Assembly: GCA_051294905.1 (NCBI GenBank)
Contig: CM119371.1
Location: 30,878,001 to 30,942,000 of the forward strand
Direction of reading: 5' to 3'
Length of the DNA stretch: 64,000 bases
DNA from: Botryllus schlosseri
Lineage: Eukaryota
Part shown: piece after piece, positions 1 through 50,061 of the stretch
Numbering within the stretch: the stretch's first letter is position 1
Layout: each line of letters starts with the position of its first letter
Position numbers and translations under genes: made by a program
Notes under the pieces: generated by a model
Told to the model about the DNA's origin: nothing
Seen by the model: the letters and a program-made list of their open reading frames with translations, nothing else
Databases searched by the model: none

Positions 1-128
1 ATCGCAATATTCCATATTATTTTTTGTAGATAATATATTCTAAATTTGGTAAACCAGACAATGCATATTCCAATGTACATTGTATTCATAATCGGAAAAA
101 CAAAAATATCAGTTACATAAAACATCAC

Positions 129-3100: not shown

Positions 3101-6100
3101 GTCCAAGATACCAAATGAATGATGTGTTTGCACGGAAGCTTTCCACCAGACGTGACAGCCATGTCACCAGTGCTATTTTTCAATTCATTTTGGATTTCCG
3201 AGCCTCCTTGCCTCAAAATTGCAGCTGACAAGGGTCCTACAATTCGAAATAAATAGATAAGGCTTGTGTTTACCATTACTAATTCTGGCTCATTTGAAAA
3301 TGGTGTAGTGCTGGCCTTGATTTGCTATGGAAAGTGTGTGTGTGTATGTTTGCCAATTGGCTGTATAAAGAGAGTAATGAAATTATTCGTAAAGGGAAAA
3401 GGGTGTTGGGAGCTTCACCACTCATAAGTTGGTTGATCACCCTATGCGGGCCCAAGAGTGGAGTTTAGGGGGTGGGGGTTCAATGCAAATTTGAACTGGT
3501 TGAATAAGATTAAAGATATTAGGGTTGCATTGTCCAAAACGCAACTAAAAAAAACTTAACAGGACACAAAAAGCAAGTACACCAGTCACATTATTACCAA
3601 AATACACAATATGATTGCTTGTTCTGGATATCAATGAAAAGGCAGAACGGCTCATTAATAGTCAGATGACATTTTTTCCAAGTCACACTGTGATCAAGCA
3701 ATACCCTCATGGCAACTGATATTGCGATTGATATATTAAGCATTCATGTTCTAGGCACCTACAGGCCACTGTCAATAGCATGGTCAACAACGTAGTGATT
3801 AAACATTGAGCAAATACTTACCAGCACGCATCAAGTCAAAGGTCATGTGAGCACTGTTTACAATAACATCTTCGTTTCGCTGAAGAATATCTCCATCGGT
3901 AATACAGACGTTCAGTGAGCCATAATTCGCATAAGACGATGTTATCATATTTGTTTGATTGAATTCGGCCTGAAAAGCCTGATAGAACAAGCAGAAATAA
4001 ATAAAAAATACTTCAATTCTAGTGTATAGTGAGATAGTTGATTATGTCACTTTGTCATTCGGCCTATACCGCGTATGGGATGTCACAGCATATGAGCGAT
4101 TCCACATTATAGTTTGGTTGAAGTTTTCAAGCTGGATGACATTGCTGCCACAATCCTGCCAACGTGTGGGTAATAGAATGAACAGTGTTCACCAGTGTAG
4201 GGGTTTTATGGCGATAGCCACTGACGGAATCTTAAACTGGGCCTCCAGGTTGCAAGAACTGAGATATTGTTGCTATATTGTTAATAATGTCACTGTTGAT
4301 TATAATATATGGCAAAAATATTGACAAGTCTGTTAAAAGCTCAAATTAACTATCGAAGGTCATCTTGCTACTAATTCATCTTTGATTATAGTGGATTTTC
4401 ATTATAAACAAATTTTCAGTTATACATTCCGTAATATTTTGTACAGATAAACTGCTCCATAACATTGATGAGTTGGATCCCAGACATGGAACTAGCCTTG
4501 GGCCACATATATGTATGCCTAGTCTAAAAATATTCATTTTCACTAGACCCGCTGTCTTAAACTCAAATTTGCACACGGGTCAATTTCCTAGTTTAGGATC
4601 ACGTCGCGGGCTTCAGCATTAATAATGGGGGCATTTCAAGTAGGCCATATTTCACAGGACTTTGCAGGATGACACTTCAGACCGATCATGAAAATGGAAT
4701 TCGGTGAGTAGCAATTCACCCCTGTCGCGACAAAATCGCAATTTGAAATAAACTCGCTGCATGGCCATTAACTCAAGACTACTGAACTATATTTACTAGA
4801 TGGGTAAAATGTGATTCTCCCACTTTCATACTACTTACGTTAAGAGCCTTAGGATTGGACATATGGAGTACAATCTTTACATGGGTACTCTTCGGTCCAT
4901 AATTGTTTATGGCTTTTTTCATCCACATGGCAACTTCATTTGGTGGCATATTAAAACCCCCTGTTCCAATAGCAGGAAATACTATTGACCTGAGAGAAAA
5001 TGATACATTGTCACAATAATCAGAACAATGAGCCGAACGGCTTGCAGAATCATAATAGGTCTCATTCTTATGCAAGGATACTCCATCATGAATTACACCA
5101 TGTAACATAAATTAATTTGAACCGATTTTTTGATATTTCCTATGCTATATTCCGTAGTAAAACATGTTTCTTGCATTTATTTGCCTCAAGTGTCGTTAAT
5201 TAAGATATGAATAGACAAATTAAATGTGACTACTGATGACCGCGCCATAACAAAATAATGGTGTTACCGTTTTCGAGCGTATGACTGCAAATCGTTGATA
5301 TTTGGCATTCTTTGATAAATCAAGTATGATGATAATAGGCACCTGAAGTTTTGAAAATCTTTGCTAGAAAATTTAGTTGTCTCAAGAAAATTCAATTGCT
5401 TTTCTATCTGGGTTTGGATTCATTCGTTGTGTAAGCAAATGTTTTGGGATTTAAAATTTACTTTTGGTTTACATCAAACCGGTCTCACGGAATATCATTC
5501 TAAAAATGTGTTCCAGAGTGTACGAATGTAATCCTAATCAAGTAATGAATAAGAAAAGGAAAGGACAAGGAATTGAAAAAAACGATGCCTATTACTGCAT
5601 TTAAGGTTATCCCACAAAAATGATATAAACAACTCCCGTGCTGAAAAAATATGCGTCTTTCTGTTTATACAGACAACTTTACTGCTGAATTTTCACATCA
5701 GGTAATCTGTTGTGTAAAACCAAGATACTAAATGAAGAAAAGCTGTTGATAACTTGCCATTTGGCACACTGTATACGTCAGGTTGCCTAACCTTGGATCA
5801 GAAAAATGAAATCAGCAGTTAGGCGATGAAATATGCCTACATCAACAACTGAATTCTATAACAAATTTATTTTACCGATAGTTTGCTTGACTCGCATGCT
5901 GCAAAGACTTTTGCACAATCTTTTTTACGATTTCCTCCGAATTGCGATCGTACGTCGATACAATGCCATGAATTATATTTTTACAGTGGAGGGATCCTGC
6001 CCTGGTGACAAATATGTCTCCATCATTGTACTTTCCACTATTCTGGGCACATTCTTTCTGTAATGGAAAACAAAAAGTGCTAGTGTGCTGTATATATATT

Positions 6101-9100
6101 CTTGAATACATATGTTTTCAGAATATATTCATATGTAGATTTGGTTTCAAATTCTCGCATGATGAAGTCAAGGAGATACAAAAGCTTTCCATATATATAT
6201 ATATATATAATGATTAGTTCCCTTCAACTAGTCAGATGTTGTTTCAGGGATGAGGTCTTATAATATATATGTAGTAGAATCTTCATGGTGATATCATGTA
6301 CTCACAACAACATCTTGTCCAGCTGCGGCAGCGAGAACTTTGGCAATGACCGATCCCTTCGTCATGTCAGCAATTTGGTACTTTGCCATTATGTTCACCA
6401 CAGCATCAGCCTACACAGAAAATTACATGAATACACCAGCATCAATGGGTGCCTCCAGTATTGCAGCATGCAATGTGCGTGTCACGTTTGACTAGAAGTA
6501 TATATCTTCCCCTTTCTACGTGTACTCGAGTGGATTTCATTTCATACTAATTCACCTGTACAATTTTGTCACCAAGACGGTGTCGAATCACCAACCACAT
6601 CAACTCATTTCGATGTCATTTGAAGGATTACAGACGGACGTTTTCATACCTCTTGGCAAGTTGGATCAAAATCAGGGTGGGAAAGATGCCCAAAATACCT
6701 CGTACCATATCCCACATGCTAAAAATCATTTCAATGATGACCTGACATGGATTCGGTGTAAGAGGTCAGATGAATCTTAATTAAGATCCCACTACCACAC
6801 AGTGAATTTTTTAATTACATTAGGAATATGTCCAGAATGTGAGTGTGAATACGCCTTACTTAGGGTTACCCTATTTCCTCCCCTACCTTACCCCCTAAAT
6901 TCAGAAAACAAAAATGTTATATTTTACCCTCCTACTACCTAAAGATTCCACAAATTTGAATGAGGGGACTCTGGTTCCAGTAAGATAGCTGGTTTGTCGA
7001 AAGTACTAGATACGTTGAAATGTCTAACCGACAAGTTGGGTTTGATACCACCAGCCTAGATCATTTCCGATCAGTCTTACATTTTGCTTTGCAATATCTC
7101 CGATTTGCACCACTGTGGTTGGTCTCGTAGTTACGGTTGGTCGAATTTCAATCTGCCTGAGAACTTTCTGGAATTCATCGAGCACTTCTTGATTTTTGAA
7201 TTCAACAAAGTCCACCTGAGATGAAAGCAGTGCAAGGTTGATTGCCTGTGCAGGATTTAGACATGTCGCTACGTTTTATGTGATTTTCTAGCAACTTAAA
7301 CAAGAAAAATCATATTGAAGTAGCAGGACTTCATTTTACATACTGTCCCTATTAAGAGATGATCAGCGCTACAATTTCCATCTATAAATAGTGTTCCTTT
7401 ATATTAATTAGGCCTACTGCATCCCAAAGCAGTGTTGGGATGACTCGAGTCATGATTTGACTTGACTCGAGTCACTTTGCTAAAATGACTTGACTTGCCT
7501 TGACTCGGCGTGTCAGAAATGTGGATTGACTCGTGACTCGGAGCAAAATTCACGAGTCAATTTCAAATCATCAAGTAATAGTGTCGATAACAATCACTGT
7601 ATCTTGCATATGTTCAGACTGTTCGCGAAACGCTTACCTAATCCGTGAGAGCGACCAATCATTCAATGACCGTGCGTTTCACTGAGCCTCGATTGTTCTC
7701 TCACAAATAAATTGACCGCACACGAAGTGATCGAAGCTTACAGCTTACGTTGTCGTAACTCTAGCAGTAAAGTAATAGAATAGCAATATGTATATTTCTG
7801 TTCTCTGTTCTTAACTTAACCAAACCTCTTGTTTCATTGAAATTGAAGTCGAATATAGTTTATATTGTTCTCAACCATTGTCGCAGGCTCGAATGGTATC
7901 ATATCTATTTGTAAATATGTAATGTATTGCATCTAGTCAATTCGTTTCTCTATTCTCTACTTTGGCTGGTAACTATAAACTGAAGCTATGCATTCACGTA
8001 GCTTAACAGCTCAACGTATATGTGAGCGATACAGCGCCTTATTGCTTGTATATTTAAATATATATTCTTTCATCGTTTCGGAATCAATGACCACTGAAAC
8101 TGTATTTCAGATTGCTAGCAAATTGCAATGACGTAGTCATGCCTCATACACACTTTGAAAAAGCAACTCGACTTGAAATGTGACTTGACTCGTGACTTCA
8201 CTTGACTTGACTCGACTTGACTCGAGTCATCTCCGAAAATCGAGTGACTTGACTTGACTCGAGTCACCTTTGCAAATTGATTGACTTGACTTGACTCGAG
8301 TCAAAATGTGCATTGACTCGAAATGACTCGTGACTCGAAGGTAGTGACTTGATCCCAACACTGAAGTTGTTCAACCTTTAGGCTAGTTACATTTTAGCTT
8401 TTTCGACCCCAGAGTATGGTCAACTAACCTAATAATTTTAATTTTTAATCCGTCTGTGACCATAGAATCCCACAAAATTGCGGCTAGCTGAAATGGCCAG
8501 TTGCCAGTTGGTTCACTGGTAGATTTGCCGACCGACAAGATAGCGTAATGGTTAAGCGTCCGGCTCTCTGTAGCAGTAGTTTTGTGAGTCAGATGTCTCA
8601 CAGCCATAGTGAAACCAACCCATTTCAAGGTCAAGCCAACATACAAGCATATTGTACCAATTAAATACTAGTCAGCGTTCGAGAATACTGGACTCTGATC
8701 AGTTATATTAACTTTGCCTAAAGAAGCATGTCCGTTTTTTTTTCTTCGCTTGTGGGTGCTTTTATATAATATTCTGTTACTTTTCATTCAGTGTGCATGC
8801 CTTTCATTTACATGTTATGGTAAGATGAGGGATGATTGAGATCCGCCGAAGAGACAAATTCATTAATGTGAGGCTTCACTTCGCTGCCACCATCTTGCGA
8901 ACAATTGTATCGCTTTTCATCATTTTTAGATCTAACATTCTTGAAAATCGCTGGTTACCAGCTATGCTATAGAAAACAATATGACTATTTCGAAGTCTTC
9001 TATTTTGTTCAAGGTTCTGTACAACTGAAACGAAAATATCGAAAGATGCCCATCAGTTGTGGACTGAGTTTGAAGGTCAAGTGACCTGGCATGTCTAGCA

Positions 9101-12100
9101 TGCAACTGGCTAATTAGGCGAATCAAATCATCAAAACCCCAAAAGTGACCCACCCAGTTTAAGAACCACTGATTTGAACAGACGGTCCACTACACCAGTG
9201 TGTAAACTATATTTAAAGCGCGTCAGACAGCAATAGAACATATACTTTAATAAAATCAATTGAAATCTCATTTACGACAAGTGCACAACTTGAAATCGTC
9301 ACATGTTTGTAGGCTGTGCAATTTTTCTCTTGTGGTTGAACTCTGACTGCGGGCTGAAGATGTACATTGCTAACCTATACATCATCTTTGTACATAACAA
9401 ATACATAAATATGCTATACTTCATGTGTAATTTGTTTCGCAAAAGGTGTCAGTTATATTCCCTTAAATACCTTCATAATAACAATGGAGAAGTTTCGAAA
9501 ATCCACAACATACCCGCGTAATACACGATTTTGGGTGCCCTTCAAAATATTGAGACACTGCATTGACGATGTGTGGTGTAACAGCATTTGGATTGATCCG
9601 AGAACCACCCCAACCCATCGCCGGAATAGCAATCGAGGTAAGGTTTTCTTCTTCTGCTACTTCCAAGATATTCTTGATGAAGGATGCCACCAATCTCTTC
9701 TGTTCAATATCCGATGCCCCCTCCAGTCTAAATATATGAGTGAAATGGATAGTTGCATTGTTTAACATGAAATAAATGGTTTGCATTCCGCCTCATGCGA
9801 TCAGAAAGGAAGTACTTTACAGCTTTCAAAAGTATGTTCATATTGACGTTTATTTACTCGACAAACTTTTCACATGATTCTTATTAAGAGCCACAGGGAC
9901 AATAAAGAAAGGACATATAACAGAGTTGGTGGCAAATTGTGACTCAATATCGTCGAAATTATAAATAGCATGAATGGAAACTGAGCCATAGCAACAATGC
10001 AGCGTATAGCAACAGCCAGCGTTACAGAGTGTTGTTGTCGTGAGACATCGAAATACAAAAACAGTTTGCAAATGTAGGGATACAGAAGAAAAAGGAAAAG
10101 AAAACAGACGGACACCAGTTATACCACGACAGCTAATGAAAAATCTTGAGACTATACAAAAATTCTTTCAAGTCGTATTCAAGTAGGATGAGTACTTGGA
10201 AGCGAGCCCAACTACAACTTGGCCAACATCTGTTAAATCATTTCACTGCATGTATTTCAACCGAGAACAAAGGAGTCCTACCCATAGTACCCATACCTAA
10301 ATGGTAGTCATTATGTGAGAGGTTTCGTAAACAGATATATGGCTCTTGAGGAATAGTCACTGGCCATTTGGTATCATAGAGCTAGGGATGGTGTGAACGC
10401 CCGAAAGGTTCAGGTTCGTGTGAACGCGAGAATTTTTGAAAGGTTATACATGAACGCGAACGTGAACCTATGACGTCACGTGACCTCATACTGCTAATTC
10501 CAACCCTACATTTCATTGAAGTGATATATTAATTGACAATTGTACACGATAGCTAGCAACAACCCAGGCCATATTATTCCACAATGCCGACGTACATGCT
10601 GAATTTTAGAAAAGTCAATAAATGCATCAACTCGAGCAATCAAATGCTGTAGTAAAATTAATAAAATGAATATCTTCCGTCACTTTTCCAGCAATTTCGA
10701 ATAGGAATTGCAAGGGAAAAAAAGCTTCCACTGTAAGGGTCCAGACCAGTCCGGACAATATATTCGTCAGTTGACTATTGCTACCTTGATATTGAGTAGA
10801 GTATAAAACGGGTTTCCAGACTTGCTATCAATGCTACGCCATAAACAAGTTGGCTGGCACGCCAATCGAATGGATTTTGTTTTCATGATATAATAAACAT
10901 TTAAAATCAAGATTGATCCCGTACGCTTATTAAATTTTTACATCATGCAACGATGTATTCTTTATCTCAATATCATTGATTGGCTGAAAAAGCATCATTC
11001 ACGGACTACCTACATATAGTGTATATCGTTCTTGATGTTGTGTGATAGCCGGTCAAGCTCACAGCAGACAGTCACCAGATATTCACAAAAGTAAGCTGAA
11101 TATTTCGAGCAAACTTTTGTAACAAGCCAAGTAAAATTCTTGAGATTGTCAAGGCGCATGCTCGTTTAGTGTTGATTTTGTTTATGCTGTTAGCGCCATG
11201 CATAGGGGGGTTTGATGTGAAAATGCAAAAATATATGAAAAAGGTTCACAGCGCAGAACCTACCAAGTATTGTTTGTGAATGTGAACCTGTACATTTCGG
11301 AGGTTAACACACAGAACGCGAACGTGAACCTCATATGGTCACACCATCCCTACATAGATCCATTGAAGTAGCCACCAGGGTGAGCAAATCCAAGTATGGT
11401 TTCTCCAATTGTTCGCCTTGAGTGTAGTGACATCATCTGTGTTCACTGTGTCACACTCGATCAGATGCATCGTTAAAAAAGTTTCGCCGCACAAATTTTT
11501 ATCTTGGCTAGTCTACGATCACAGAGCTGATCACATAATTTTTGTTATAATAACTACAAGTTGTAATGGCTCTGCTTAGCGTACTGGTGGCGGTATACAG
11601 CCGTTTCAGAAATCTTACTCTGGTCCAACGACATTGACGATCTTTTGGCAATTTGGCAAATTCCCACCGTTCGTTATGACAGCCTCTATTGGCAGCAAAT
11701 TTCTCCGCTTGACAGATTTCATTTTTTTCTTTGTTTGATTTGCTTCACGTGTGTCTGTAATTGAGTTGATGATAAATCACAAATGCATGTAGGAATGTGC
11801 GCCTTAAGAAGGGGATATCTGACAATCACTCACAATCAAAATCGAGTCTTAATGATGCTTGCCACGGCATTTTAGATTTGAATTCAGTTTGCATGAATAT
11901 ATCAATGAACATTGAAAGTCAAAGAGGGCCCAAATGCGTAGTAGAGTCCGGCCCAATCCCATAATATTGAGTATGAAGTCGATTTTCTGCATTTCTGTCA
12001 TTGGATAGGACGGTAATGGGGAACCTATGGTTCTCAAACCAAATATGCCTGTTGTTGCTAGCGTTTCGCTGTGACGAGATTGTGACGAGATTTGAATTGG

Positions 12101-15100
12101 ATCGCCAGGTTCAGCTCAAGAGTCTCAATACAATAAAGTGTTGTGGTGTCTGGCTATTGTTTTAATACTAAACAGTGTCTCTTTCTTCAGTGTCTAGCAT
12201 ACATCAGTAGTAAGAGTGGAAAGTGTGCACTATGTCAGGAAGAGTTGGCTCATAGCATGGCTGATATAAGTCTTACTTGATAAAAATGGCATATTCACTA
12301 GAGCAGTGGTTCTCAACATTTTTTACCTCGTGGACCGGTAAAACTTCAAAACATATGTTATGGACCGGTGAACCTTTAAAAATCAAAATAAACCCTAAAT
12401 TTGAATATGACAAATTTATGCAACTCTAAATAATGTAATATTGGAAACTTCATTCCTAATAGATATTTATACGCAGTTCTATAGAAGTTTCTGCGGGGGA
12501 CAGCTCGCGAAATCCTGTTACAAACTTCTAAATTGATTGAGATTGTACGGTATCCGTTGTCAGAAATGCGTCTCTACGGTTTGTTATAGCCTATACTATA
12601 CACAGTTTGTTTACGAGTCTTCGCAGCTTTAACAGATAACTTGTTCGAAACGAGTTGTAGTCTACTTTCAAACAGTTTTGTAGAACACTTGAACCATTTG
12701 TGACCTACGCCCAAAGTCAGGGGTGTCAAACATACGGCCCGCTAGACCATTTCATCCGGCCCACAAAGAAATTCTGAGTAAATTAAAAAATGCTTCTATT
12801 ATTTAACACATATGCAACAAATGATTTTAGTAAGAAATAAGGTCAACAAATGAAGAACCTAGCTGTGAATAGGCCACATATACCCATATGACAGTATTGA
12901 TGCAGTTTCACTCTCTCAGGAAAAAGTATTTGACATGATGAAACCTGATAAAGGTGAATATGGCATTGTCCGAATTCAGTGATAAGCCTGTGGTATTTCA
13001 CTGAAATTTTGCGACACGCGAACTGTTCCAATTGTCAAGATTGCATGATCTACCAGTCCAGCTTGAATACCCGATTTTGATGGAGAGACATAAATCAATC
13101 ATCTCAGAATACTGCACATAGATATAGTGATTAGATTCCAGGATATATTACAATTAGAAATTCCTTACTGGATAATAAATCCATTCTGCAAAGTTTCCGA
13201 GCATGAAATGATCGAAGAGCTGATTATGTAGCGTAGAGCAATTTTGAGTTCAACCCAAAATTTAACATCTCCAATCAATCGTTCTGGATACACAATTGAA
13301 TCAAATAGAATTACCCTCACTGGAGTCGGGTTAACATTTCCGTCGTTGCCCTTCCCCGCTCATATTCGATAGAACATGTTTTCAGTGCCGTGATCAAGTT
13401 TCTGGCTCACAGCAGAAACCGACTTGACAGCAAGGGACGCAGAGACTGGATATTTTAGAATGAAATTGTTCTTATCAAAACTAAAACCAATGTGACGAGG
13501 ATGGTGATAATAAAACACCAGCTTCATCCTTCTCATTATTATTAGCTTTAATGAATGCAGAATAACTTTCGTCTTATGAGTTAGGCGTGGCGAGAGGGTC
13601 TGGGGCACCTTGTTCGTTCTCCAGGGGGGCGGTAATCTGAAAAAATTTGGAAAACACTGGTATGGAGTGAGAAATAGGTTGACAAACAGTGCTTTTCAAG
13701 ATGTAAACTTGGATTGAAATTTCCATGGATTTAAGACCTGTAATGCTAAGATGCTGATAAGATTAAATGATTGGGAATAAAGTCGTTTTTATACGATTGA
13801 AATGGATTTAGGCGAAATATAGTAAAATTACCAAATACATGCCCAATTTGTTTTCACCTTCCTTATTATGACTTTGAGACGTCACTTGTTCGAGCTTCAA
13901 CACAATCATCAAACTTCCGACTGCCTTTGTCATTCGGTCGCTCACGCCTTTCAGATCACGCAGTTTGCGAACCCCTTCAAGCAGACCTGGTTCCTGGAAT
14001 TAATTTGTTTTTTGACATAATCAGAAACTGGTCGGCATTTCGTGCAGATTCCGGGTATATTTATACTCTACGACAGGGGTCGGCAACCTTTTGCTAGTCG
14101 CGGGCCAAATTCCGAGTGCACAACTTTTTGGCGGGCCGGAATTTTTCTTGATACTATATTTAACGCTCACGTCGGTTTATTACCCTCCATTGCTGCAATC
14201 TCAATCATACAAATCACAAAAAGGGCAAAACACATGTATTTACACTTCAACAACGCAGCATAAATGTGACACTTGGCGCAGCATGCTTTGTGAAAGAATT
14301 TCAACTTCTAATAATAAGTCAGATGAAGCAACAATCAAACCACATTCTAAATGGGCATTAGATTTAGAATACACGTGATCTTAGCTTGCTCTTTGTGAAT
14401 TCCATTGTTTTAAACTATTTTTCACATGCGTATAGGTGCTATCAAAAGTCGATGCCATTTCTTTTGTATTGTTGGTCAAGCTGGGATAAAGACCCCTTTC
14501 AAGAACGTACTCTTTGTCAAAGTCATACAGCGATATGCTCTTCGTATGAAATTTGTCTTTCAATTCAACTGCATCACATTTCAAAAGGGCCCATTTGAAA
14601 TTTTCAGGCAACGGTATTGACGCTCACATTAAACCGAGTACTGAGTAGTCAGAATTTATTTTTTACAGAACGAATGTCGAAAAAGCGGGTGGAAATTCAG
14701 TAATTAAATTTCGTATCACAGTTACAAAGGTATTGTGCTGGTACTAGAGGTTTACTCTCCACCAGTATAGGAAAGTGAGCATAATTTTCTTTTTACTGTT
14801 GACATTCCCAGAGTCGTAGTTTTGTTTCGAATGCACCTCAACATCTCATGTATTCAGTTATTTCCTCCTGAAGTTGCAAATTCAATTTGTTAGATGTGAC
14901 GTTAAATGTACTACAGAAGCAAGATTAGATACTCATTTTCGATGACAAGATTATGAGTCGGCGATGTTTGTATTTTCAAGGAAAGTTGCTATTTCGTTTC
15001 TCAGTTCATACACTCGTGCAAGGATAGCGGCTCGACTTAATGTGCGAACATGGCAGATATACAGGACATCGCCATATTGATTCTCCGCTTCTAGTAATAT

Positions 15101-18100
15101 ATGGGGTAGGCTAACTGTCGGTGATCAAGTTTGTGAGACGAAATCAGCTTTCCCCACTGTGTCTAAAACACTATTCAGGTTTGTTGTCTTGGCGTACAAT
15201 GTCTTCTGGTGAATTAAACTGCAGATGACTAACCTACGGAGGCTGGTTATCTCAAATGAAACGGAAAGTTTGAGATTTTGTCATTGCGTCTGAGATGTTC
15301 CAAGCGTTTTTGAAGCAGAGGAACTGCGCCTTTAATGTCGCACCCTATCAGAGTGGCAACCCCTTAAAAAGTATGGTGTACCTATGGTTGCGCGATACAC
15401 ACGCTTTATAAGCACTGGTCTAGTCTACTCTACATACATTCTCCATCTCCTACTTTTAGTACGAGATAGGCTACTAATCAACAGCGTTCGCATCAGTTTT
15501 ATGGCCTAACAATAGACCAATACCACGTAGGATACTTACATCGTAGCAATGCCGCATTCTTACCAAGCAGTGATGCAGTGCTGCACTGCAGATTGGAACT
15601 CATTACGAAACGGCGGGCCGTATTCTTGTGGTAACTAATTATTTCGTCGCGGGCCGGACGATTTCGCTTGGCGGGCCGGATCCGGCCCGCGGGCCGTAGG
15701 TTGCCGACCCTTGCTCTACGAGATGATAGAGCGCCTATAGAGCACCGAATCTCAAGTTAATGTTCTCATCAATCAACTCAGGCAAAAAAGTAATGAGAGC
15801 ATAAATCTCACTTGGATAATCTTTTGCTTATTGTCAGTATGGAGGGCAAGCAACCTGATGAGGTTCACAGCCTCGAGATTTTCTGTCGCCGATGACGAGT
15901 CGGGATCGAATAGTTTCGTCACAATCGGCAGAATCCCAGCGTCCACAATTGCTTTCTGTTGATGAGACGAGCAAGATGTAGATTCCGTTTCATAATTCCG
16001 TTTTACGAACCTTGTTTCCATCATTTGACGCCAATTTATTGAGTGCTCCAAGAATTTCTTCCACAGAGAATGAGCTCGTGATTGTGCTCATGCTCATGCT
16101 CATGTTCCCAACGTGAGTGACAGTGGACACAGCTGATTTGAGCATCTTCAGGATAAATGGAATCACTTTGGCTCCTATCAATATCAACAGATCGAGTTGC
16201 ATTTGACTCGATTGCTTGTTGTCGATTCTTTCAACCATCCCTAACAGACACTTTGTCTTGCATTGCAGGCTTATAAATTTAGTGACAAAACCATCACACT
16301 ATCTGTGTGTTTCCATCCGGGAAATAATCCTGGTCAATGTATGAATACCTGCTGAGATTCAGCAGAGGTGGTCAGTAACGAAGTACTTCTACTTTTTCAA
16401 AGTACTCAAGTAGTTTTCCTCTACTTCTGGTACTTACTCAAGTAGATCCGATTTTCGCTACTTCTACTTCTACTTCGTAATATTTTGTGATCTACTTACT
16501 TACTTTTCGCTATTTTCAGTTTGTCAAGTAGAAGTAGTTCAATCTTCCAATCAGGAAGATAGCCTGAGAAATTTCGGGGCTGTTTTCACGGAGTATCAAC
16601 ATTTAATTGTCACAAAAGTTGAGTAAAGCCAAGAATTTTCGTCGCGCTTCGCGCGCAGGGGATATGTAGTCACCAGTGTGATTTCACGAAAGTATCGGTG
16701 AATATAATTTAGGTCGCGGGTTGGCGTGGTTCCGTTTACACCACATTGTCGCCCTTCGCCCATATGAAATAATTCATCACAGTATATATGGCTCATCATA
16801 ACGTTTGAAACTGATGTTGCGCAATCTAGCATTTACTTGTCATATCGTAATCTAGCATGTCCACGGCGTGTCCTAATCTGGAAACGTGGACTTTTTTTTA
16901 GTTTTAGAGCTGTTTTAGCACACCACCTTTGAAACTTTCTGAACTAAAGGTATGAAATACATGCTCCGCTTTTAGAAGTAGTATTTATATTTCACTTATA
17001 ATTCCCAGTATCATATACTTTGAGTTTTAATTAATATCAGTTCTTTTGTCTGGATAAGATACATGTTGAGGTATAAAAGCAAGTGTAGTAATGCCTTTAA
17101 TTTCCGGAAATAAAGCTACACAATATGGCATTTTTACGGTCCACCATATTTTTTATTAACGTTTACTAATCGCGCAAAGTGTTTACACCGTATCCTATGC
17201 AACTTCTCCGTATTGCTCTTTGACTAAACTACGGGCCTTATAATATGGGGATGGCGCCGTACCATGGTATTTTCTAAAACGTGCTATTCGAGTAAACAGA
17301 TGATTAGAATCGCATTTCCATATCAATACTATCATGATGTTGATGAATGCTTATGCTATCGAAAATTGGATACCTGTTGGTATGCATCAATATGAATCAC
17401 GCTCGTCACCTTTCGCATAGCTCAATTTGCACCTTTTTACAATCCATGTGAACGAAGTAGGATCGTTTTCACAACTACTTACTTACTTGAGTACTTTCAA
17501 AGTCAGTCAATTCTACTTCTACTTCAAGTAGTTTTAGGTTGCTTATGGAAGAAGTACTTCTACTCGTACTTGAGTAGATTTTTTCGTCGCTACTTCTACT
17601 TCTACTTGAGTAGCATTCTTGACTACTTTGACCACCTCTGAGATTCAGCGAGGAAGAAATGGATTGAAATTGATTTTTAAGAAGACACTACTGTCATTAC
17701 TGTGAATAAGTTGCTGACAGTGCAGCAAACGCAAACAAAAAGAAACGCTCTCAAACCTGACTCGATTATTGAGTTTTCCTCCTCATTTATGCAATAGGCG
17801 AGGACAAAAAAGACATATGCTTTGATGTAGAGAGGCTGTGAGTTCTTGTAAGCAAATATCTTTTCAATCCCGTTGTTCCTTCTTATGTGGTTTCTGATTT
17901 GGTTGGCATTCCGCACCAGGTTATGTAAAATTGCCAAGTCTGCCTGTGAAAGAACCGTTTCTGAAAATATTCGCTTCAAAAATTTTAAAACCAGGTCTTG
18001 GCCTGCGTGGCCTACTGACTCCGAGCCTTAGCGACGTTGGAATAAGATCATAACGTTTGATATGGTCACCTCGATCATATACGATAAACTGGGTTGGGCA

Positions 18101-21100
18101 AGTTTCTGGACATTCAGCTGTGGGAGGGTGAAATCCTTCATCAGTCTGTCAATGAGGGCGTCATCCTTAAAGCAGGCAGCGGCGAGACTCTTGCACTCGT
18201 CCGAGAAATTCAACAGAATGCGTTTCATCTGTAAGCAGACACGAGTTACAAGCATTCCGCACAATGTCATAATGTCAACATACGGACCGTCTTTAGAATC
18301 TTGAAAAGAACATGTTCGGTGTTGCTGTAGAACGCATTGGGATTTTCATGACACCGATCCCACAGTCTGACAAAAGTCTTCAAAATGCCTTCCTTGAGGA
18401 GAACGTCACAAATCATATCCAAAACCGTTGGTTTGTAAAGGAACTTGAAAATCGTCTGGATAACAAAAGCTATATTGATACACGACTCACAACAGAATGA
18501 ATCCAAACCAAGTATCCTAAAAAATAGACCGAATCATCCTGTGTTTCGGGTAGTTAAAATAAGCTGCCTACGCGGCCACTTGCTGACACTATGGTGTGTT
18601 TTCTGGTTTGCATTGTTTGGCCCAGTGCTCTTCAAATGGTGTCCACCAAAATATGCATGAGGTATATCAGCATGAAACAGCATTCAAGGGTGCATCAAGA
18701 ACTTGTCAGACCATATTGACTTGAGTGTGGAAACCAAAATTCAAGTAATTAAATACTGGATCTATGGTCAATCTGTGAATTAATCAATCCAAAGATTATG
18801 ATTATGATTATAACTATAATGTATAAAATCATTTAGTCTCACTTTTTGCAATGCAATTTATCGCACCAGCGATTAGGAAGTAGATAATTTTCATACCAGA
18901 ATGTAAGATGTTTAAGTATTCATTTGAATTGTTATGATAGGTAGTATTGTGTTCAGTGCATATGGAGGAAATTTTGGAACACACAGCGAATCGACTATAG
19001 AGCTTTTTATATTTGCTGCAGCCTTTGGCCAATTTGCCTGGAGCTGATTCGATCTCTAACATCATTGTCAATTATACATATACAGTTGATTCCTCTTAAT
19101 TAGAGCACTGGGGGTTCTGCTCACTTTTGGCCGAATTAGGCGGAAAAACGACTATGTCCGAAGGCGTTAAATCAATTGTTCGTTACATAATCATGGGTAG
19201 AGGCAGACAACGCATTGAAAATACTGTTATGTTAGGTATTAAATGAATTGCAGCTGCTCTATCATGCAGTAATCGGCACTGATCGCACAAAGTACAAAAG
19301 AGTGATACCTTACGTTTGGTTATATTGTGCAGTACCGTGCTGTATTTCGATACCAAACGATTCAACAAATACTTTATACCAGCACTTGGTCCTTACCCTT
19401 GACTGACCCGTAGAACCCCAAATTTTCGTTTAGTTGTAAACACAAAAATCTATCTCGATTCAAATCTAACTATGGAAAATCAGCGTTACATCTCCTGTTC
19501 TCTTTCAGACACTAGTTAAGAAATGCGAGGCCGAACCTCGGAAAGTGTCATCGTATTGTTCGGTCGAAACGCAACTGTGTGATACTAATTGCTTATTTAC
19601 ATATGAGTTATTAATACCTAAAATAGAATTGGCATTTAGGAAGGTCACAATTACACTATCGAGCAAAATTGCCTGTAACCCAGGCGTTGCCAACTCAAAA
19701 CAGGTCTCGGGCCACTTTTCAAAATTCGTAGAGGCCGCGAGCAGCTTGACTTTAACAGCAACGTTTTGATGAATCTACGCCAGCACGACGCTGGGCACTG
19801 TAACATGGGCGACGGCCATAATTACCACAAAAGAAAAAATATTTTACTGAGGAAATACCAATACAACAAAAGAAATCATGATCATCACTTCCATTCTATT
19901 TTGAACTATGAGCTGCGTACGATACCTGACAATACTCTTCAGCATAGGGGTGGGCAACCTTTTTGCTGTTGACGGCCGCATTTCGATTACTTATGTAGCC
20001 TACGGCTGCATTCCAGTGGATATAGTCGTAATGAGCAAACTGGAGGCCCAATATCCATGTTAAACTGCCCATGCCCATTGCCAGTGAATTCCGGACTAAT
20101 CTATTTACTCATATCGGCTTACTATGCGCATCGAAATCGCGACTAGTCAGGGATTTGTTTTCTCGTCAAAATTTTTTCATATTCTTAGCGAATTTCGTCA
20201 TTTATATTAGTATTGTTTCACATATCACTATCGAATATTTATCTTTCCTCAGCCCATGTGATCAAATTCGCAGGAAGAGTTGATGTAGGAGGTGTCTTCG
20301 AGAATTTAGGGAAGTTATTAATGCTGCGCTCCATCTTTTGGTGGGTCAATTGTTGTTAGACCCCTGCTGTTATTCCTTGACATCCCATCAGGATTGTCAG
20401 TATAGTGAAAAGATATTGGATTCGCCCAAACTTAGGCTTATCAGAAAAAAAAACTTCCTTTGTGGTAAGGAGAACACAATTACAAATTGGTATTTCTTTA
20501 TGGGGCGCATCATTTTCTTCTGCGGTTCGCATCTGTACTGTTCGGCTCAGATTACAAAGGACACTACTGTATTAAAATCGAAAATCAACCATTCATATCG
20601 GCAAATTCTTCCTCAATGGAATGATATTACCATCACCGAAGCCGTATTAGTTGGTGAGGGATAGTGATATTGGGTACAGGAGAAGAGCTTTTCGAACAAC
20701 AACAACAATGTGTTTAAACTGAAATGAATTTCAAAGTGCTTTAGTAATCGTTCTTCCGACATTTCAAATCAGGTCGCGGGCGGCAAAATATGGCCTCACG
20801 GGCCGCGCGTTGGTAACCCCTGCTGTAACCACATGCTGGCGAAGACAATTCATCACAAATCATATGTGACTTGACCTCCATGGAACGGTCCCTGAACGGT
20901 CCCTGACACTGGCTCATCGAACCCCTAGTGTTCTGTGGGATGCCGGTAAGAGCCACTGCTTCAAACTATTCACTGTATTACTGTGTTAATGTGTAACATA
21001 CACACATAGGGTTGAAATAGCACAGTAATTCTTCAAATACAGTCCCAAGCAGCAAAGGCTGAAAGAGTATTTTCACCTGATAAAAGTAGGCCAACTATAC

Positions 21101-24100
21101 TTAACAGTAGGAATTGAAAGAAAAAATATTTTAGCTAGGCAGAAAACATTTCTGCATCATTCTGTTCTACAAAATGGACGCAACTTTCCCAAAGTAAAAG
21201 CGACTATAAAGCTGACATGGCCTTATATGAATTCCTTATTATCAATTGGTAATGTATCGATTGTCCCTGTTTCACCATTATTACTCCTTTTGTGTTAAAC
21301 AAACAGAGCTGCTTATTTTGCCATCACCCAATGATAAGAATTTCTAAGCTATATCCGAATCAAGTGAAAAGTTGTTCGAAATATTTATTGATCTGGCGAA
21401 AAAAAGTTTAGGAATTCCTGCACAAAACAGAGTGCTTGAGTTAGTCAGAACAACTTGAAGAGTTCACTACACTTAAAAAGGTTGAAGCGAACTGATTTAT
21501 CCTAAGGGTAAGCTATCGCTTGTACCTTTGAAATTTCCTGCAGATGATCCAGCGAGGTTTCATCAAAGTTTTGTGAGAGCCTGAGATGCTGCACAGATTC
21601 CTGAAATTCATTCAAATGATCTTGGAGCAGTCTTGACAGTGATAGATTCATTTGTGAGCGTCAAGTATGACAGTTCAATGAAACATGGCCAAATTTTCAA
21701 AAAAATTCGATGGGTATGACATTTCAACGGAACATTCAAATTCAAAAATAAACCGTACGGTTTGACATCTCCATGAAGCTTTGGCAAAGGATTAGGAAAA
21801 AATGCTTGTATTTAATATCCCTACAGAAAAGCTATTACTCATCCATACCTTTAGAATTCCATTGAGATCGTCCATTGGGGTTTCATCAAAGTTTTGTGAC
21901 CGCTTGAGCTTCTGCACAGATGCTGCACCTTCCATCGAATGATTGAAGCGGGCTCTTGAAAGTGATAGATTAAATTGTAAGGGTTATGTATGCAGATGCG
22001 GCAAGGAAAAAAGTGCTTCTACTATTTCGAAGTACTCTATTTGCAGTCTTCACTCAAGTAATCCATTTCCACTTCTTCCTATTTTGTGACTTACTTTTTG
22101 CAATTTACAGTTTGCCAAGTAGAAGTAATATATTCTTTCAATAAGAGAGACTGAGAGAGACCAAGACGGTGACATTTATGGACGTTTTTCACTGAGAGTA
22201 TATAATTTCTGTCATCCTTCGCTGGAAGTAACTGTGGAGTGAGCAATATGCTTCTACAAAAGTCTTGGTCAATGTAATAAATTTATGTAGCGGTTGTGTG
22301 ATTCATGTGCTCAATTTCATATGGCACAAGAAGTAGAGTTCAGCGAAACACTTGGAATTATACAATCTGCCACATTTACAGTTGCCTTCCTAATTGGAAA
22401 ACCGTTAATGTAGTATCATATACAACTACTCCGTGTCACTTATCTTCTTATTATCGCCAGACCTTATAATATGATGACGGGCATCTTACTGTCGCATTTG
22501 GTGAAAAGTGGCACTGAGACGAAAAAGGGTTAGATTAGAAGCACTGTTCTATAGCAAAACTAGTATTTGTATGGTGTATCACATGATGCCGTAGAACCCG
22601 TATGTGGTTGAAAGATATATCTCTAGTAAGGGATGTAGCACCACAGACCCAGCTCTCTACACCCAGGCGCGTAGTCAGAGGGGGGATCTCGAGGGTCGAA
22701 ACCCCCCTTCTGAAACGCAAAACTCCGTCTTTTTGAAATGACCATTCTGACCCTAATATTCAGTTGCAATTCAATAAGTCGTATTATCAGTGTTGCGCGC
22801 AGCCGTGACCAATTAGCAAGAAGCATGTTGCCAATTAGCGAGATTTGTCTGTGCACAATGCAACGCGATGCGCCGTCGCGCCTCCAACAAGCCTAGTTCC
22901 GTTGGCTTGAAGAATTGCATCTGCAATAGGCCCGATGCGCACCATGCCATCGCTCTCCTGCACAATCGCATCTGCGCACAAAATCATCGTTTGCCTACAG
23001 AATCGCACAAAAGATATCATCGCTGGCCTAACTATCGCGTCTCGGACCTAGCACACTTTGGCGCCTATCTCTCGATGGCTTGGAGACAATGCCGGTAAGT
23101 GTATGCTGATTAGCGATTGTGATTCAAGAGTGCTATCGCGAAACTGAATGACTTCAAATGTCGGCAAACATGTGCCTGCGTACATGCGTATTGCATAATT
23201 GATTTCCGATAGTACTTGAACATAACCATCAGAAGATCTGTGTCAACGCTTGAGTTATAAAAGATCAGGCTTGAACCACCTGAAATCGATGTCATTATAG
23301 AACAGATTCCAAAACAACTCGGATATTTTTGCCTGTGAAAATGGAGACCACGTAATCGTGCGTATTTAATTGGTCACGAGAGTTCAAGGACTCGCTAATT
23401 GGCAGCACTTCCGGACTCATTGACAAGCTCACCATACGCGAAAGTTCGCCAACACGAGGAGATTTTATAATCGTCGATTTACGGATGTCCTTAATCTTAA
23501 TGAATTGATTGCTATAATAGTAAATTCGAAAAAATTGACTCCCCCCTTCCATTTTTCGGCTGGCTACGCGCCTGTCTACACCGTACGCATATGTCAGTTT
23601 TCAGAATTTTGACGGTCCATGAGAGCGTAGCACTGAATTTTAAAACTACCGGTAGCCATTTACGGGACTACTTTTCAACGACGCCCAAACTACTGGTACT
23701 TTGAGCTGCTTTGAAAAGCGCTATTTTTACTCGCACTCGAGTAGAATTGTGCGTTGCTACTTCTACTTGAGGTGCCTACTTTGAACAGCTCTGTGTGTAT
23801 GACATGTGGTTCAAGCATTGGCGAAGATTCAGAACAATTTGCCAGGTATGATATATCGATGAAATTTGAAGGCACTGTCATCATGTTCACTTTCAGATGA
23901 TGACGGTAGTGAAACTGTAATGATGGAGTAGCGTAGTATATTCAGGAGTATTCGCGATGTTAACTAAATTTAGGCGGTGCCCGCAGGCCTAGACACGCAC
24001 GGTTCGATTTGAAATCTCTTCCTGCTTTTATCCACGGTCGCATTGTATTCATCCGCTGAAGTGGAGTGACCATGTGTGACAATGTTGACGATGCCATCGG

Positions 24101-27100
24101 CGGTATGTGAGACAATGTCAACCATACAAATTCTCATAGTCAATTTTCCCAGTTGAGTAGAGAAGAGACTCGTTCTCGGAACATTCTGGATAAAGATCAC
24201 CTTCATTATTAATACGTACAAAATATATGTTTATATTAAAATAAAACCGAATGGTTTGGGGTTCCGGCAGTAATCGGCAGCGAATAGTCGAGTTCTCAAA
24301 AGAACAATACATAAACAGCCATATCTCCAGCATAAAGTTTAAATATCAGTTCAAATATGAAGTTGAAGGTAATAAATATGAAATGCCGACTGGAAATTCT
24401 TGATAAGTCATACAACCAATTGGTAAAATAATCAATTGGAAGAGAATCAAAAGTCAGAATTTATAGACCTTGCAGGGAACAAACTTGTTTTATATCTTCA
24501 AGTACCATTGCAGTGTTGCTTACTTTGGGCTCCAGCTTCGTTTTTTTTGTGCCTTTGGTCTCAAAAAGTTTTGGAGGCATTGCTTCAATATAACAGTTGG
24601 TAGCACGTCTTATGTTTTCCATCACTCCTTGGTTAGCAGGATCCATATAGTATCTTTTGATGGCTGGGTTCGACCGCGAATGCTTCTCTGTTACTATACC
24701 CGCTACTATCTGGTTGATCTCCAATTGTGCTGAGAAGTAATCACATATTAAAGGATAAAGTTCAACAAAAACTTTATTTGAACAGCAAGCAAATATTTGT
24801 CTATGATAGTCTATGTATGACAGGATAGGCCAACCTTTTCGGCCAACGGGCCACATGAGATTTACAAACCATTGCGTGGGCCCCTCAAGTATTGACTACC
24901 TTATTTTAGTTGTCTGATAGGTGCGAACCAGATTAGTCAGCGGAGAAAACAAGATTTATATTACTACACATCAAAATCGATAACAATTATGTTGATGGAA
25001 ACTCGGTGTGCATTGATATCCTAGCCGATTGAAGCGCGAAATTTCAAAGTTAACAAATGAATTTGGTCAATAATAATGTTATTTGCATATATTGCGGGTC
25101 GCCTCTGTATACCGCTGGGCTCATTTGGCAAGTACAGGATTATTCGACGCTTGAACATATCGAAGATTTCGGTGAACATGTGTCCATCATTATGTGCAAA
25201 GGTTATATCGCCGACCACCTTTATGTGAGTGCAGACGCCAAGTCATAATTGCGAATATAGTTAGACTTAATTCTGTAAATTATGTCGTAACCTGATTTCT
25301 ACTGAAGACCATTTGTCATGCAGCATTGAATAGTTTAGTTGAAGTAGTAGAGTTGAAGCACACCTTATGATCACAACTAGATGAACCCTAGGCCAATACT
25401 CATGGTGAGTAAAAGCATATTGCTTCAGGCCGTCCCTGTTTATAAGGGGGAAAATTTATCTACATTATTGGCAGTACCTTCTTGAATACTTTTTTCTGTT
25501 CCCTCAAGACGTAACGTCCCACCATGCTTGCTCAGTTGACTGAAGTGTTTCAGAGCCTTGCGTTTCGGATTATTGACATTAAATCTCTCACAATAGTCCA
25601 ATACAAATTTTGCTTGGCACTGATTCAGCGGAACGGTGGCTACCCTGATCACATGCTCTTCAAAGAACAGCCGGAACTTTTCCCGAATTACATCAGCATC
25701 AACATCTTTAAGTCCGACGATGTCAATGGAGTTGCAGCCCTGGATATAAACAACACTTCATATGTCTACATTTGCGGTAATAACAGTGCAAACGTAAAGG
25801 AAAGCAGCTACCATCATCCAGCAGATAAGTCAACGCAAAATTAGCACTGGTTTAATAATTGAGTACCGTAATTTTCCATGTATAATTGGCTATGCAGTAC
25901 GCCCCCATGTATAATACGCACCCTGAAAATAGCAGGTCAACACTGGAAAAAAGCGATGTATAATTTTAGTTTCATTTTTCAATGAAAAAAAAAACGACCT
26001 TTGAGGAATACGAACACGGCAAACAAGGTATCATATCAGTCTAAACTTCATTTTAAAGGGCAACCTACTACAATGTAAGAATGGTGTCAGGCCACAACTA
26101 TGAAGATTAACGGATCAGGTGCATAGAAATCAGTAGGACGGGAACCTCCCTTTCCAGGGAAACAATGATTGAGTCGGTACTGCAATGTGTGAACATACAT
26201 ATACCCTTGGCGCAACCAAATAACTTTTCGATTGTTATGTGCATTTCGCGTAGTAGTACTACTTGACTACTTCCACTGGGTATCAATTGAAATTATTCCA
26301 AACAAACTATATATGTTGTTGTAGTCTTGATGGATGGATGTTGACGAGTTCATCATTCCATAATTGCTATTACTGAGCAGATAGTCGGCAACATGCCACA
26401 TTGGCCCTGAGTAGGTTTGGGCGAAAGTGCTGACCCTTCTGTTTTAGTAATCAGCAGAGCAAATTGAAAAGCGGTGGCGGAAAATTTTGGAATATAAATT
26501 TAGGTTCGCGACCATCTAAAGGTTGGGAACTACTATCATGGATAAACGCTACCTTTTCATAAACGGCACAATTTTCTTTGGCTATTTTCTGCACGAACTC
26601 CTTCCATTTTTCCTTTTCGATTACTTCAGCTTTGGGCCCAGAAACATCCAAATTTGAAACCCAGGTCAATCTTCTAATGACATTAGCGACTTTCGTGTGG
26701 TCCTCTTCGCATTTTGATTTAATGTACACCCCGCTGGCATTGGGTACGAATTCGGCTGCAAAAAAGTTCATGCCACTGACGGCACTTTAATATTGGACAC
26801 ACTAACACAATTACATAAATTGGGGTAGATAGCTATTCAGACGACTGTCCTCATAAGCAAAATGCAGTAAATACTGTGAAGGAGTTTGGTTTGTGTGATC
26901 CAAGTACACCAGTGGTTCCCAACCTGTGGTACGCGTACCACTGGTGGTACGCGAAGGTCTTCCAGGTGGTACGCGAGTAGATTCTGTTTTTTTTTTCGAC
27001 CGAAGGAAGTTATTGGTTCAGGTGAGGTTGATTTTGGATTTTTTTGACTAGTGGTGAAAAAACAATTCCATGCATCCCATCAACCTGGGCTGATAATGCT

Positions 27101-49600: not shown

Positions 49601-50061
49601 AGAACATGCCTATTCTTATCTACAAGCTCATTGTGCTTGCAGACTGATACGCGATAACTTTCATTGAGCTGCGACATTACACTTACTCTGCCAAACAATT
49701 TATATTTAACTGCACTAGCCATGTGCACTTGGGATTTTTGGTGCGTTTTCAGACGCTCTGACAAATGCTTCAGATCGCGATAACCAATTTTGTTCCAACA
49801 AGAGCCACTGCTTCCGGTACCGGCACTGTCGAATAAAAGACTGTAAAAGCAAAACAAGGCGTTTTTATCCTCGCCATAAGTAAGCCATTTATTTTTATCG
49901 AAATGCGCTGAAGAAAAGGCACGAGTGCGTTTTCCTCCGGCGTACGATTGGATCAATGGGCAATTTCTAGGCTGATACGGACCTAGTCGCTTTACCTCTA
50001 ATTTTTGCTCTAAAGGCAGCTGGCTAAACGGCGTACGGAGCAAAGATTCAACGCGATTCAT
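46650..50061 (-). pseudogene. ZMYM1-like hAT transposase, interrupted by an insertion and one frameshift
   Basis: Motifs LPLRGHDE, SEETTD, YDGAAVMSG, HCYAHQLNL, TRWN, TPISSAESERSFSTLKRIK. The frame continues across the 47310-48620 insertion (..DGTTA|QLCIAH..); frameshift near 47125. Confidence 0.9.
47310..48620. mobile_element. Non-autonomous hAT nested in the transposase ORF
   Basis: Termini CAGGGCCGTAAC...GTTACGGTGCTG; perfect TSD GCGCAGTA; internal duplication of about 380 bp at the left end. Confidence 0.9.

Follow-up and report, generated by a model that had tools for sequence, protein, structure and literature searches.

Evidence that a PARP14-like gene of Botryllus schlosseri carries an inserted armadillo-repeat gene fragment in its first macrodomain exon

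We analyzed a window of 64,000 nucleotides from Botryllus schlosseri (GenBank assembly GCA_051294905.1, contig CM119371.1, positions 30,878,001 to 30,942,000), which carries exons of a PARP14-like host gene on its minus strand (Table 1). Further host exons lie upstream of those listed, up to ~31788. Tandem macrodomains are present, with PF01661 scoring over its cut-off in segments 3004-3324 (55.1 bits), 5875-6117 (27.9 bits) and 9466-9792 (25.6 bits); exon 4782-5111 scored 19.5 bits, under the cut-off of 22. The PARP catalytic domain (PF00644, 38.2 bits; cut-off 26.7) is encoded by a terminal exon below the window (L030:838-1224), which has a stop codon at its end. This catalytic exon matched only two proteins in a word-based protein search, and its best named matches were 'PARP14-like' and 'poly [ADP-ribose] polymerase 14'. 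A KH_PARP14_5 match in the host gene (E 0.024) fell short of the Pfam cut-off, and a single exon picked by eye as WWE had no Pfam WWE match at E<=0.001. As in vertebrate PARP14, a macroPARP, three macrodomains precede the PARP catalytic domain of the host gene. The host gene differs in that its first macrodomain (macro-1) has lost a loop through a 10-kb insertion with armadillo (ARM) exons inside.

Table 1. Features of the PARP14-like locus, in window positions. C3a and C3b are paralogs of the host gene, and C10 and C6 are paralogs of the ARM gene; a slash marks a splice border.
Feature	Positions	Strand	Remarks
Upstream host coding exons	26768-26529, 25754-25476, 24736-24491 (HSP ranges; span 24491..26768)	-	collinear with C3a and C3b, 55-65% amino acid identity
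Macro-1 N exon, host-derived part	24073..24185	-	acceptor cag/AAT; ancestral 3' end (~54 nt) and donor missing
Inserted segment, ~10.24 kb, bearing the ARM gene fragment	13836..24072	-	junctions mapped on both sides
Insert DNA read through from N exon	24001..24072	-	up to donor AACC/gtgcgt at 24001, phase 2
Old dispersed repeat within insert	22657..23592	.	73 more matching stretches genome-wide, mostly 70-80% identity
Exon A	21849..21954	-	acceptor as first drawn 21954 (phase 2); family acceptor shifted 1 nt to 21922 (74 nt, phase 1 to 0)
Exon B, tandem duplicate of A	21526..21631	-	family acceptor tttcag/GAA kept at 21600 (75 nt, phase 0 to 0); acceptor as first drawn 21631
Six ARM exons	18455-18288, 18228-18070, 17943-17757, 16174-16011, 15955-15812, 13993-13858	-	matched to C10 exon by exon
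High-copy repeat, intron between ARM exons 17943-17757 and 16174-16011	16363..17640	.	85-94% identical copies in C6 locus; very high read and contig depth
Stretch past donor AAG/gtgaaa (13858)	13808..13857	-	last 11-19 nt of ARM-gene homology, junction, host intron, TAA stop 13810-13808
Remaining host intron, insert to macro-1 C exon	11755..13835	-	C3a intron homology at 13835-13792
Macro-1 C exon	11619..11754	-	phase-1 start; borders acag/ACAC and CCAGA/gtaaga; homologs in C3a and C3b
Last macro-1 exon	9508..9750 (piece 9466-9792)	-	Pfam Macro positions 65-114, 25.6 bits
Macro-2 and macro-3 exons, then further host exons	27..7250	-	Pfam Macro 27.9 and 55.1 bits; collinear with C3a

An initial sequence-only reading had described macro-1 as split by an in-frame ARM cassette. 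The N and C exons of macro-1 do lie 12 kb apart, with ARM exons between them on the same strand, and the corresponding intron measures 3.6 kb in C3a and 0.65 kb in C3b and contains no ARM exons in either. The C exon (piece 11618-11776) matches Pfam Macro positions 25-64 at E 8.6e-4 (19.7 bits, under the cut-off of 22). The intervening exons, seven or eight in number and free of stop codons as first reported, have homologs in C10 exon by exon (tblastn E 1e-9 to 6e-34). Eight of 15 queried window pieces matched C10, as did none of six host pieces. The window exons show 67-71% identity to C10, with which they have intron positions in common. Their assignment to ARM repeats was borne out by a profile of exon 15955-15812, which matched designed armadillo proteins and Vac8 at E ~2e-6; Pfam searches with single cassette exons returned Arm alone (E 0.063). 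The ARM coding sequence (1029 nt) has no stop codons or frameshifts, and the AG/GT dinucleotides are intact at all 11 splice sites common to the window and C10. An ORF at 19508-19774 was considered as an additional exon and rejected, having no match in the paralogs.

The genome holds three copies of the ARM gene: the copy in the window and two full paralogs, C10 and C6, on other chromosomes. At the 3' end of the homology, the corresponding exon in C10 and C6 continues into ..HIMLSYNW.. and is followed by a TIR_2 exon (32.2 and 30.4 bits; cut-off 28). A genome-wide search with the C10 TIR exon found C10, C6 and a distant C4 locus only, and the TIR and SAM ORFs of C10 and C6 found no TIR or SAM exon in the window. 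C10, C6 and the homologs P0002 and P0014 begin with an N-terminal MG(S/C).. start exon, which is absent from the window, where no minus-strand ATGGG occurs between 24300 and 21900. Between C10 and C6, the upstream exons did not align, and neither set aligned to the window. Forty-eight homologs in other species, collected with a profile of exon 17943-17757, include 14 with TIR_2, five with SAM and none with a Macro or PARP domain, in keeping with the earlier view that the ARM/macro pairing is unusual. SAM was seen only in these homologs; the 'SAM' exons of C10 and C6 gave no Pfam SAM match (0/15). The donor was identified as an ARM-TIR-SAM immune adaptor family (including C10, C6, P0002, P0003 and P0014). 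The window copy shares its homologous ARM exons and intron positions, but lacks the MG.. exon, TIR and SAM and is therefore a fragment of the family rather than a member by architecture. The donor family contains the same three kinds of domain as SARM1, but in a different order (ARM-SAM-SAM-TIR in SARM1). Kinship with SARM1 was considered and dropped: a search of solved structures with P0002 gave no SARM1 match at E<=0.01 and ranked Vac8 and designed armadillo proteins highest.

Both ends of the insertion could be mapped. On the 5' side, homology of the N exon stops at 24073 in the comparison with C3a and at 24077 with C3b. The N exon as first drawn (24185-24001, starting cag/AAT and ending AACC/gtgcgt) is thus macrodomain as far as 24073, and its last 72 nt (24072-24001) are insert DNA. 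On the 3' side, homology to the C10 ARM gene stops at 13847 and homology to the C3a intron begins at 13835. This intron match (C3a 10789-10832) scored 43, compared with a maximum of 30 among 300 shuffles, none of which reached 43. Window positions 13835-13792 are the counterpart of C3a intron sequence ~110 nt past the C3a N exon. Relative to the paralogs, the insertion therefore removed ~54 nt of the N exon (~18 codons), the ancestral donor and ~110 nt of intron. The missing exon stretch encodes the conserved loop after ..IVN.., which reads ..HAAGVSGAI.. in the paralogs before a phase-1 donor (G/gtatg); the window has insert DNA instead. Two other explanations were abandoned in the process. 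The 3' end of the N exon had been taken for frameshifted, diverged paralog sequence until the C3a intron homology at 13835 showed it to be insert DNA, and an apparent 8-bp deletion at the start of TIR is the insertion junction itself. The stretches flanking the dispersed repeat (24072-23593 and 22656-21990) occur once in the genome, and a genome-wide search found no parent locus left for them.

These data give good support to an origin by DNA insertion: part of the interior of an ARM-TIR-SAM adaptor gene entered the first macro-1 exon at its 3' end, in sense orientation. The fragment extends from the third coding exon of the family, present here in duplicate (A and B), to the first TIR codons. 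The exon shuffling proposed at the outset thus holds at the DNA level, as a sense-oriented insertion of ~10.2 kb, but macro-1 was not simply split. The loop and donor were deleted, and the remnant (C exon plus last macro-1 exon) has since changed faster on the window branch than in the sister paralog (23 window-unique versus 9 sister-unique changes, p=0.02). Macro-1 is probably dead, because its loop and donor were deleted and the remainder then changed faster. The acceleration also suggests that the insertion is not brand new, with an age of ~0.07 dS (wide error).

Because the fragment lies in sense orientation within the macro-1 exon, it may be read as part of a fused protein. A host transcript would have to cross seven or eight genuine sense-oriented exons, and their inclusion as an in-frame cassette of ~355 amino acids would be the most likely single outcome. 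The predicted route runs from the N exon through donor 24001 to exon A or B, then through the six ARM exons and donor 13858 to the macro-1 C exon, and this path contains no stop codons. The phase arithmetic first offered for it is right. It is weak evidence, however, since rival in-frame paths and a 364-aa ORF also exist. Since A or B offers a fitting acceptor for every donor phase (3/3), agreement on the 5' side says little; agreement on the 3' side has about a one in three probability of arising by chance. Donor 13858, whose phase fits that of the C exon and which lies 11-23 nt ahead of the junction, scored 7.2, among the best at the locus, on a crude, untrained matrix built from consensus frequencies; at the position of the window donor GGTG, C10 reads GGCG. 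We put translation of the cassette within the PARP14-like protein at a little short of an even chance. The product would comprise, in order, a KH-like region, a macro-1 stump, the ARM solenoid, the macro-1 remnant, macro-2, macro-3 and the PARP catalytic domain.

The insertion also created a second donor at its junction (CACATG/gtcact at 24071, phase 1), from which in-frame paths lead to 21922 and, skipping the whole insert, to 11754; a direct splice from 24001 to 11754 meets a stop after two more codons. The insert could accordingly be part of a 12-kb intron, with 24071 joined to the C exon. Macro-1 would then lack ~18 residues, or the host gene would be very recently dead, and the ARM exons would be untranslated and decaying. 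The open path from 24071 to 11754 fits this possibility, as does the similarity of the two donors, which are both weak on the same crude matrix (2.6 for 24071 and 2.4 for 24001). The fragment has neither a native start nor a native end, and partial gene duplicates are mostly relics. The ARM copy has changed 5- to 7-fold faster than C10 (49 window-unique versus 7 C10-unique changes, p=7e-9), as expected of decay, and intact frames are likely for a young insertion: simulated neutral divergence of 0.02-0.03 left them intact with P 0.36-0.51, which is unremarkable. At greater divergence, fewer runs stayed free of stops (15% at 0.06, 2% at 0.12), and the suggested age sits poorly with 1029 open nucleotides and 11 of 11 conserved splice dinucleotides. 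Skipping would also have to bypass seven or eight genuine exons with conserved splice sites. Nor is there decay in the host exons outside macro-1, where 44 window-unique changes compare with 48 in the sister (p=0.76). On the window branch, dN/dS is ~0.29 in the upstream host exons (dN 0.102, dS 0.349) and ~0.35 downstream of the insert. Together, the host exons evolving at the sister paralog's rate, the open ARM frames and the retained splice dinucleotides favor ongoing translation. We regard a skipped insert as somewhat less likely than inclusion of the cassette.

Selection on the ARM exons had been suggested as a further criterion. Their dN/dS against C10 is indeed low, at 0.12 over 321 codons, but this value may reflect time before the insertion. 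The ARM dS against C10 (1.3) exceeds the host dS against C3a (0.63-0.88), and the ARM copy therefore probably resided elsewhere first. The coding character of the ARM exons, seen in this ratio and in the simulation, would also suit a nested gene whose transcription begins within the insert. Such a gene would run from an in-frame ATG inside exon A (21935) to the TAA in host intron DNA, while the host splices around it. Its product, an armadillo protein of 364 aa that lacks both TIR and SAM, might regulate the full-length adaptors or act as their decoy. No stop interrupts the frame between this ATG and the TAA, there is an ATTAAA at 13552, and more distant homologs of 300-500 aa, some perhaps fragments, have no Pfam TIR. 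Against this, the MG.. start exon of the family is missing, position -3 of the ATG is a pyrimidine, no AATAAA occurs within 1 kb of the stop, and the host would still depend on the weak donor 24071. We consider a nested gene rather improbable.

Read depth over 7001-27000 was confined to repeats (7001-9000, 10336-11669 and 16339-17672), with ~0 on the macro and ARM exons and no splice joints, in a sample of four runs (three as contigs, one a raw RNA-seq run sampled at ~6%) that is uninformative on expression. None of the sequencing runs matching the locus is recorded as RNA, and a word-based search of longer proteins gave no match to the ARM exon ORF or the N-exon ORF.

Were the fused protein made, macro-1 would be inactive and the ARM solenoid would bring in a protein-binding surface from a TIR adaptor. 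According to PMC10499325, macrodomain 1 of human PARP14 is the macrodomain with ADP-ribosyl hydrolase ('eraser') activity, and an engineered macro-1-dead mutant raised cellular mono-ADP-ribosylation. That mammalian PARP14 has repeatedly lost macrodomain activity is described in PMC10221186. A full-text literature search on PARP14, macrodomain, armadillo repeat and domain architecture found no ARM-containing macroPARP among the matches listed. Invertebrate ecTIR-DC proteins are widespread cytosolic proteins in which TIR is joined to further modules, armadillo repeats among them, and are thought to be adaptors or regulators (Gerdol et al. 2017, as cited in PMC6836662 and PMC6321704). The one class compared here, family 6, is ARM-Death-TIR-TIR, as opposed to ARM-TIR-SAM in the donor family. 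A more specific proposal is a writer-only macroPARP, in which an adaptor's ARM module was captured and translated, the enzyme's own eraser macrodomain was destroyed by the same event, and the protein is targeted to the binding partners of the ARM domain. This stronger version seems to us somewhat unlikely.

Should the cassette go untranslated, the locus would be an ordinary insertion relic in a long intron. If the cassette is translated, the locus would represent a clean natural domain capture between innate-immune families, from a TIR adaptor to a macroPARP, with mapped junctions, a known donor family and a datable hydrolase loss. It would also provide a natural 'macro-1-dead' PARP14 for comparison with the engineered human mutant and show a route by which invertebrate immune architectures originate. 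In plant NLR immune receptors, integrated domains are foreign protein-interaction modules that gene rearrangement has brought into an immune protein. The Botryllus locus would be similar in carrying a foreign module within an immune protein, a likeness that covers architecture and not decoy function, and it differs in protein class and kingdom. A writer-only macroPARP, if true, would be an animal counterpart of these integrated domains, arising from a single mapped DNA insertion.

The window belongs to an animal genome of 495 Mb (contig C1) and carries a PARP14-like gene. A Pfam search matched Macro in five host exons, with three scores exceeding the cut-off, and placed the PARP catalytic domain (PF00644, 38.2 bits) in the gene's last exon, which lies immediately below the window start. 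The sequence-only reading had described a gene of this kind with its first macrodomain (macro-1) split by an in-frame armadillo-repeat (ARM) cassette of ~355 residues. Both macro-1 exons that it named, N and C, proved genuine, with proper splice sites, and the same-strand exons between them are present: A, B (a tandem copy of A) and six more. The C exon also matches G000:C5 (3130451, 2996683) and C12 (14084050), so the number of PARP14-like paralogs in the genome is five or six at the least; the paralog comparison covered the two copies on contig C3 (C3a and C3b).

Features of the window and the basis of their assignment
Feature	Position	Strand	Basis
PARP14-like gene	~31800 to below window start	minus	exons collinear with C3a and C3b
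Macro-1 N exon	24185-24001	minus	splice sites, homology to C3a and C3b
Tandemly duplicated exons A and B	21526-21954	minus	comparison with C10 and C6
Macro-1 C exon	11754-11619	minus	splice sites, Macro search
hAT-type transposase long ORF	36326-38480	minus	domain matches
hAT-type transposase long ORF	46653-47129	minus	domain matches
hAT-type transposase long ORF	48613-50082	minus	domain matches
Receptor-like ORFs	60036-62139	minus	by eye
High-depth repeat	7001-9000		contigs of three runs, raw RNA-seq of a fourth
High-depth repeat	10336-11669		contigs of three runs, raw RNA-seq of a fourth
High-depth repeat	16339-17672		contigs of three runs, raw RNA-seq of a fourth

The cassette exon set occurs in three copies genome-wide: in the window and in C10 and C6, two complete genes on other contigs that each open with a short MG.. 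exon. The window exons have counterparts in both genes with identical intron positions. In C10 and C6 the counterpart of the last cassette exon continues directly to ..HIMLSYNW.., and a TIR_2 exon comes next (bit scores 32.2 and 30.4; Pfam cut-off 28). A profile of one ARM exon, built from the three copies and run against 1.84 billion representative proteins, matched 48 proteins at E<=0.001. Pfam assigned TIR_2 to 14 of the 48 (13 above the cut-off), Arm to seven and a SAM-family domain to five; Macro or PARP domains were found in none. In full-length homologs (610-707 aa) the TIR domain lies ~210 residues past the profiled ARM exon, which fits the window exon series. The profile of another ARM exon matched designed armadillo proteins and Vac8 (E ~2e-6), establishing the armadillo identity of the cassette, and the family member P0002 itself matches Vac8 (E 6e-12). 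Searches of the window recovered neither a TIR or SAM exon nor an MG.. start exon. The cassette is therefore an internal piece of an ARM-TIR-SAM adaptor gene, lacking both the head and the tail of that gene.

The duplication that produced A and B is unique to the window copy, with one such exon each in C10 and C6. Exon B retains the family acceptor; that of exon A has moved by 1 nt, bringing an upstream ATG into frame. The sole length difference from C10 across the six ARM exons is a 24-nt in-frame insertion of ATGAGC-like repeats at 16080-16110 (exon 16174-16011). In P0001 (1078 aa), a homolog from another organism, the N-terminal portion of the ARM repeats forms three tandem copies ahead of one TIR domain. 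The family's ARM module seems to undergo internal duplication readily.

Both junctions of a single insertion are readable. Homology to C3a and C3b ends within the N exon, at 24073-24077, and homology to C10 ends at 13847. A match to the C3a intron begins at 13835 (44 nt, 80% identity, score 43, a value reached by 0 of 300 shuffles), corresponding to a point ~110 nt past the C3a N exon. Thus ~10.24 kb (24072-13836) took the place of ~165 nt of host DNA, namely the last ~54 nt of the N exon, the ancestral phase-1 donor and ~110 nt of intron. The lost exon end encodes ..MTLHAAGVSGAI.. in both paralogs. Because the N-to-C introns of the paralogs (3.6 and 0.65 kb) contain no ARM exons, the insertion occurred after the split from C3a. 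We found no second copy of the insert's unique flanks and no orphan TIR-SAM copy in the genome, which argues against a misassembly and shows that the parent copy is gone. The earlier observation is confirmed and its origin explained. Under every reading, macro-1 has lost its core loop and is no mere split domain that could refold.

On the window branch, host dN/dS is ~0.29 on the 5' side of the insert and ~0.35 on its 3' side, similar to the paralogs, and outside macro-1 there are 44 window-unique and 48 sister-unique amino-acid changes (p=0.76). Constraint on the host has therefore persisted on each side of the insert, which requires either some in-frame route or very recent damage. In the macro-1 exons that remain, change is accelerated (23 window-unique vs 9 sister-unique changes, p=0.02; branch dN 0.19 vs ~0.10 elsewhere), consistent with a macro-1 disabled for some time, roughly 0.07 dS with wide error.

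The splice path first proposed is open, running from the N exon donor at 24001 to A (21954) or B (21631), through six exons to 13858 and into the C exon. A second path through the cassette, from 24071 to 21922, is also open. That the ARM cassette is translated within the PARP14-like protein is the likeliest of three readings, at somewhat less than even odds. Somewhat less likely is that host splicing bypasses the ARM exons as a relic. The path from 24071 to 11754, which omits the insert, is open; direct splicing from 24001 to 11754 meets a stop two codons on. A nested ARM-only gene is unlikely; a 364-aa ARM-only ORF is open from ATG 21935 to TAA 13810-13808. Phase agreement on the 5' side carries no weight, because acceptors in A or B accommodate every donor phase, and 3' agreement has a chance of ~1 in 3. 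On a crude matrix of consensus frequencies, donor 13858 is good (7.2; GGTG in the window vs GGCG in C10) and the N-exon donors 24001 and 24071 are weak (2.4 and 2.6).

Compared with C10, the ARM exons show dN/dS of 0.12 (dN 0.151, dS 1.28, 321 codons), no stops or frameshifts, and AG/GT at all 11 shared splice sites. ARM dS to C10 exceeds host dS to C3a, so much of this constrained history may predate the insertion. The window copy is strongly accelerated, with 49 vs 7 unique changes against C10 (outgroup P0002, p=7e-9) and 35 vs 11 with P0003 as outgroup. At simulated neutral divergences of 0.02, 0.06 and 0.12, the probability of a stop-free frame was 0.51, 0.15 and 0.02. Together, these signals favor, moderately rather than decisively, the view that the ARM exons are still translated.

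No sequencing run recorded as RNA contained the window. The contigs from three runs, together with 6% of the reads of an RNA-seq run, mapped to repeats only and showed no splice joints, and in the protein collections searched no protein contained these exons. The three repeats of very high depth account for the 5-9% word shares of those runs with the window. The hAT-type ORFs (DUF4371 plus hAT dimerisation domain, 618 aa; DUF4371, 490 aa; hAT dimerisation domain, 159 aa) represent at least two elements upstream of the PARP14-like gene. The receptor-like ORFs resemble pieces of a seven-transmembrane receptor, with no Pfam match at E<=0.001 for three pieces.

An ARM-macro-PARP architecture was found neither among the 48 homologs nor among the papers listed in the literature search. 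Two reports describe invertebrate 'ecTIR-DC' proteins, in which TIR is joined to other modules, armadillo repeats among them (PMC6836662, PMC6321704). Macrodomain 1 of human PARP14 is the active hydrolase, whose inactivation raises cellular mono-ADP-ribosylation (PMC10499325), and macrodomain activity has been lost repeatedly in mammalian PARP14 (PMC10221186).
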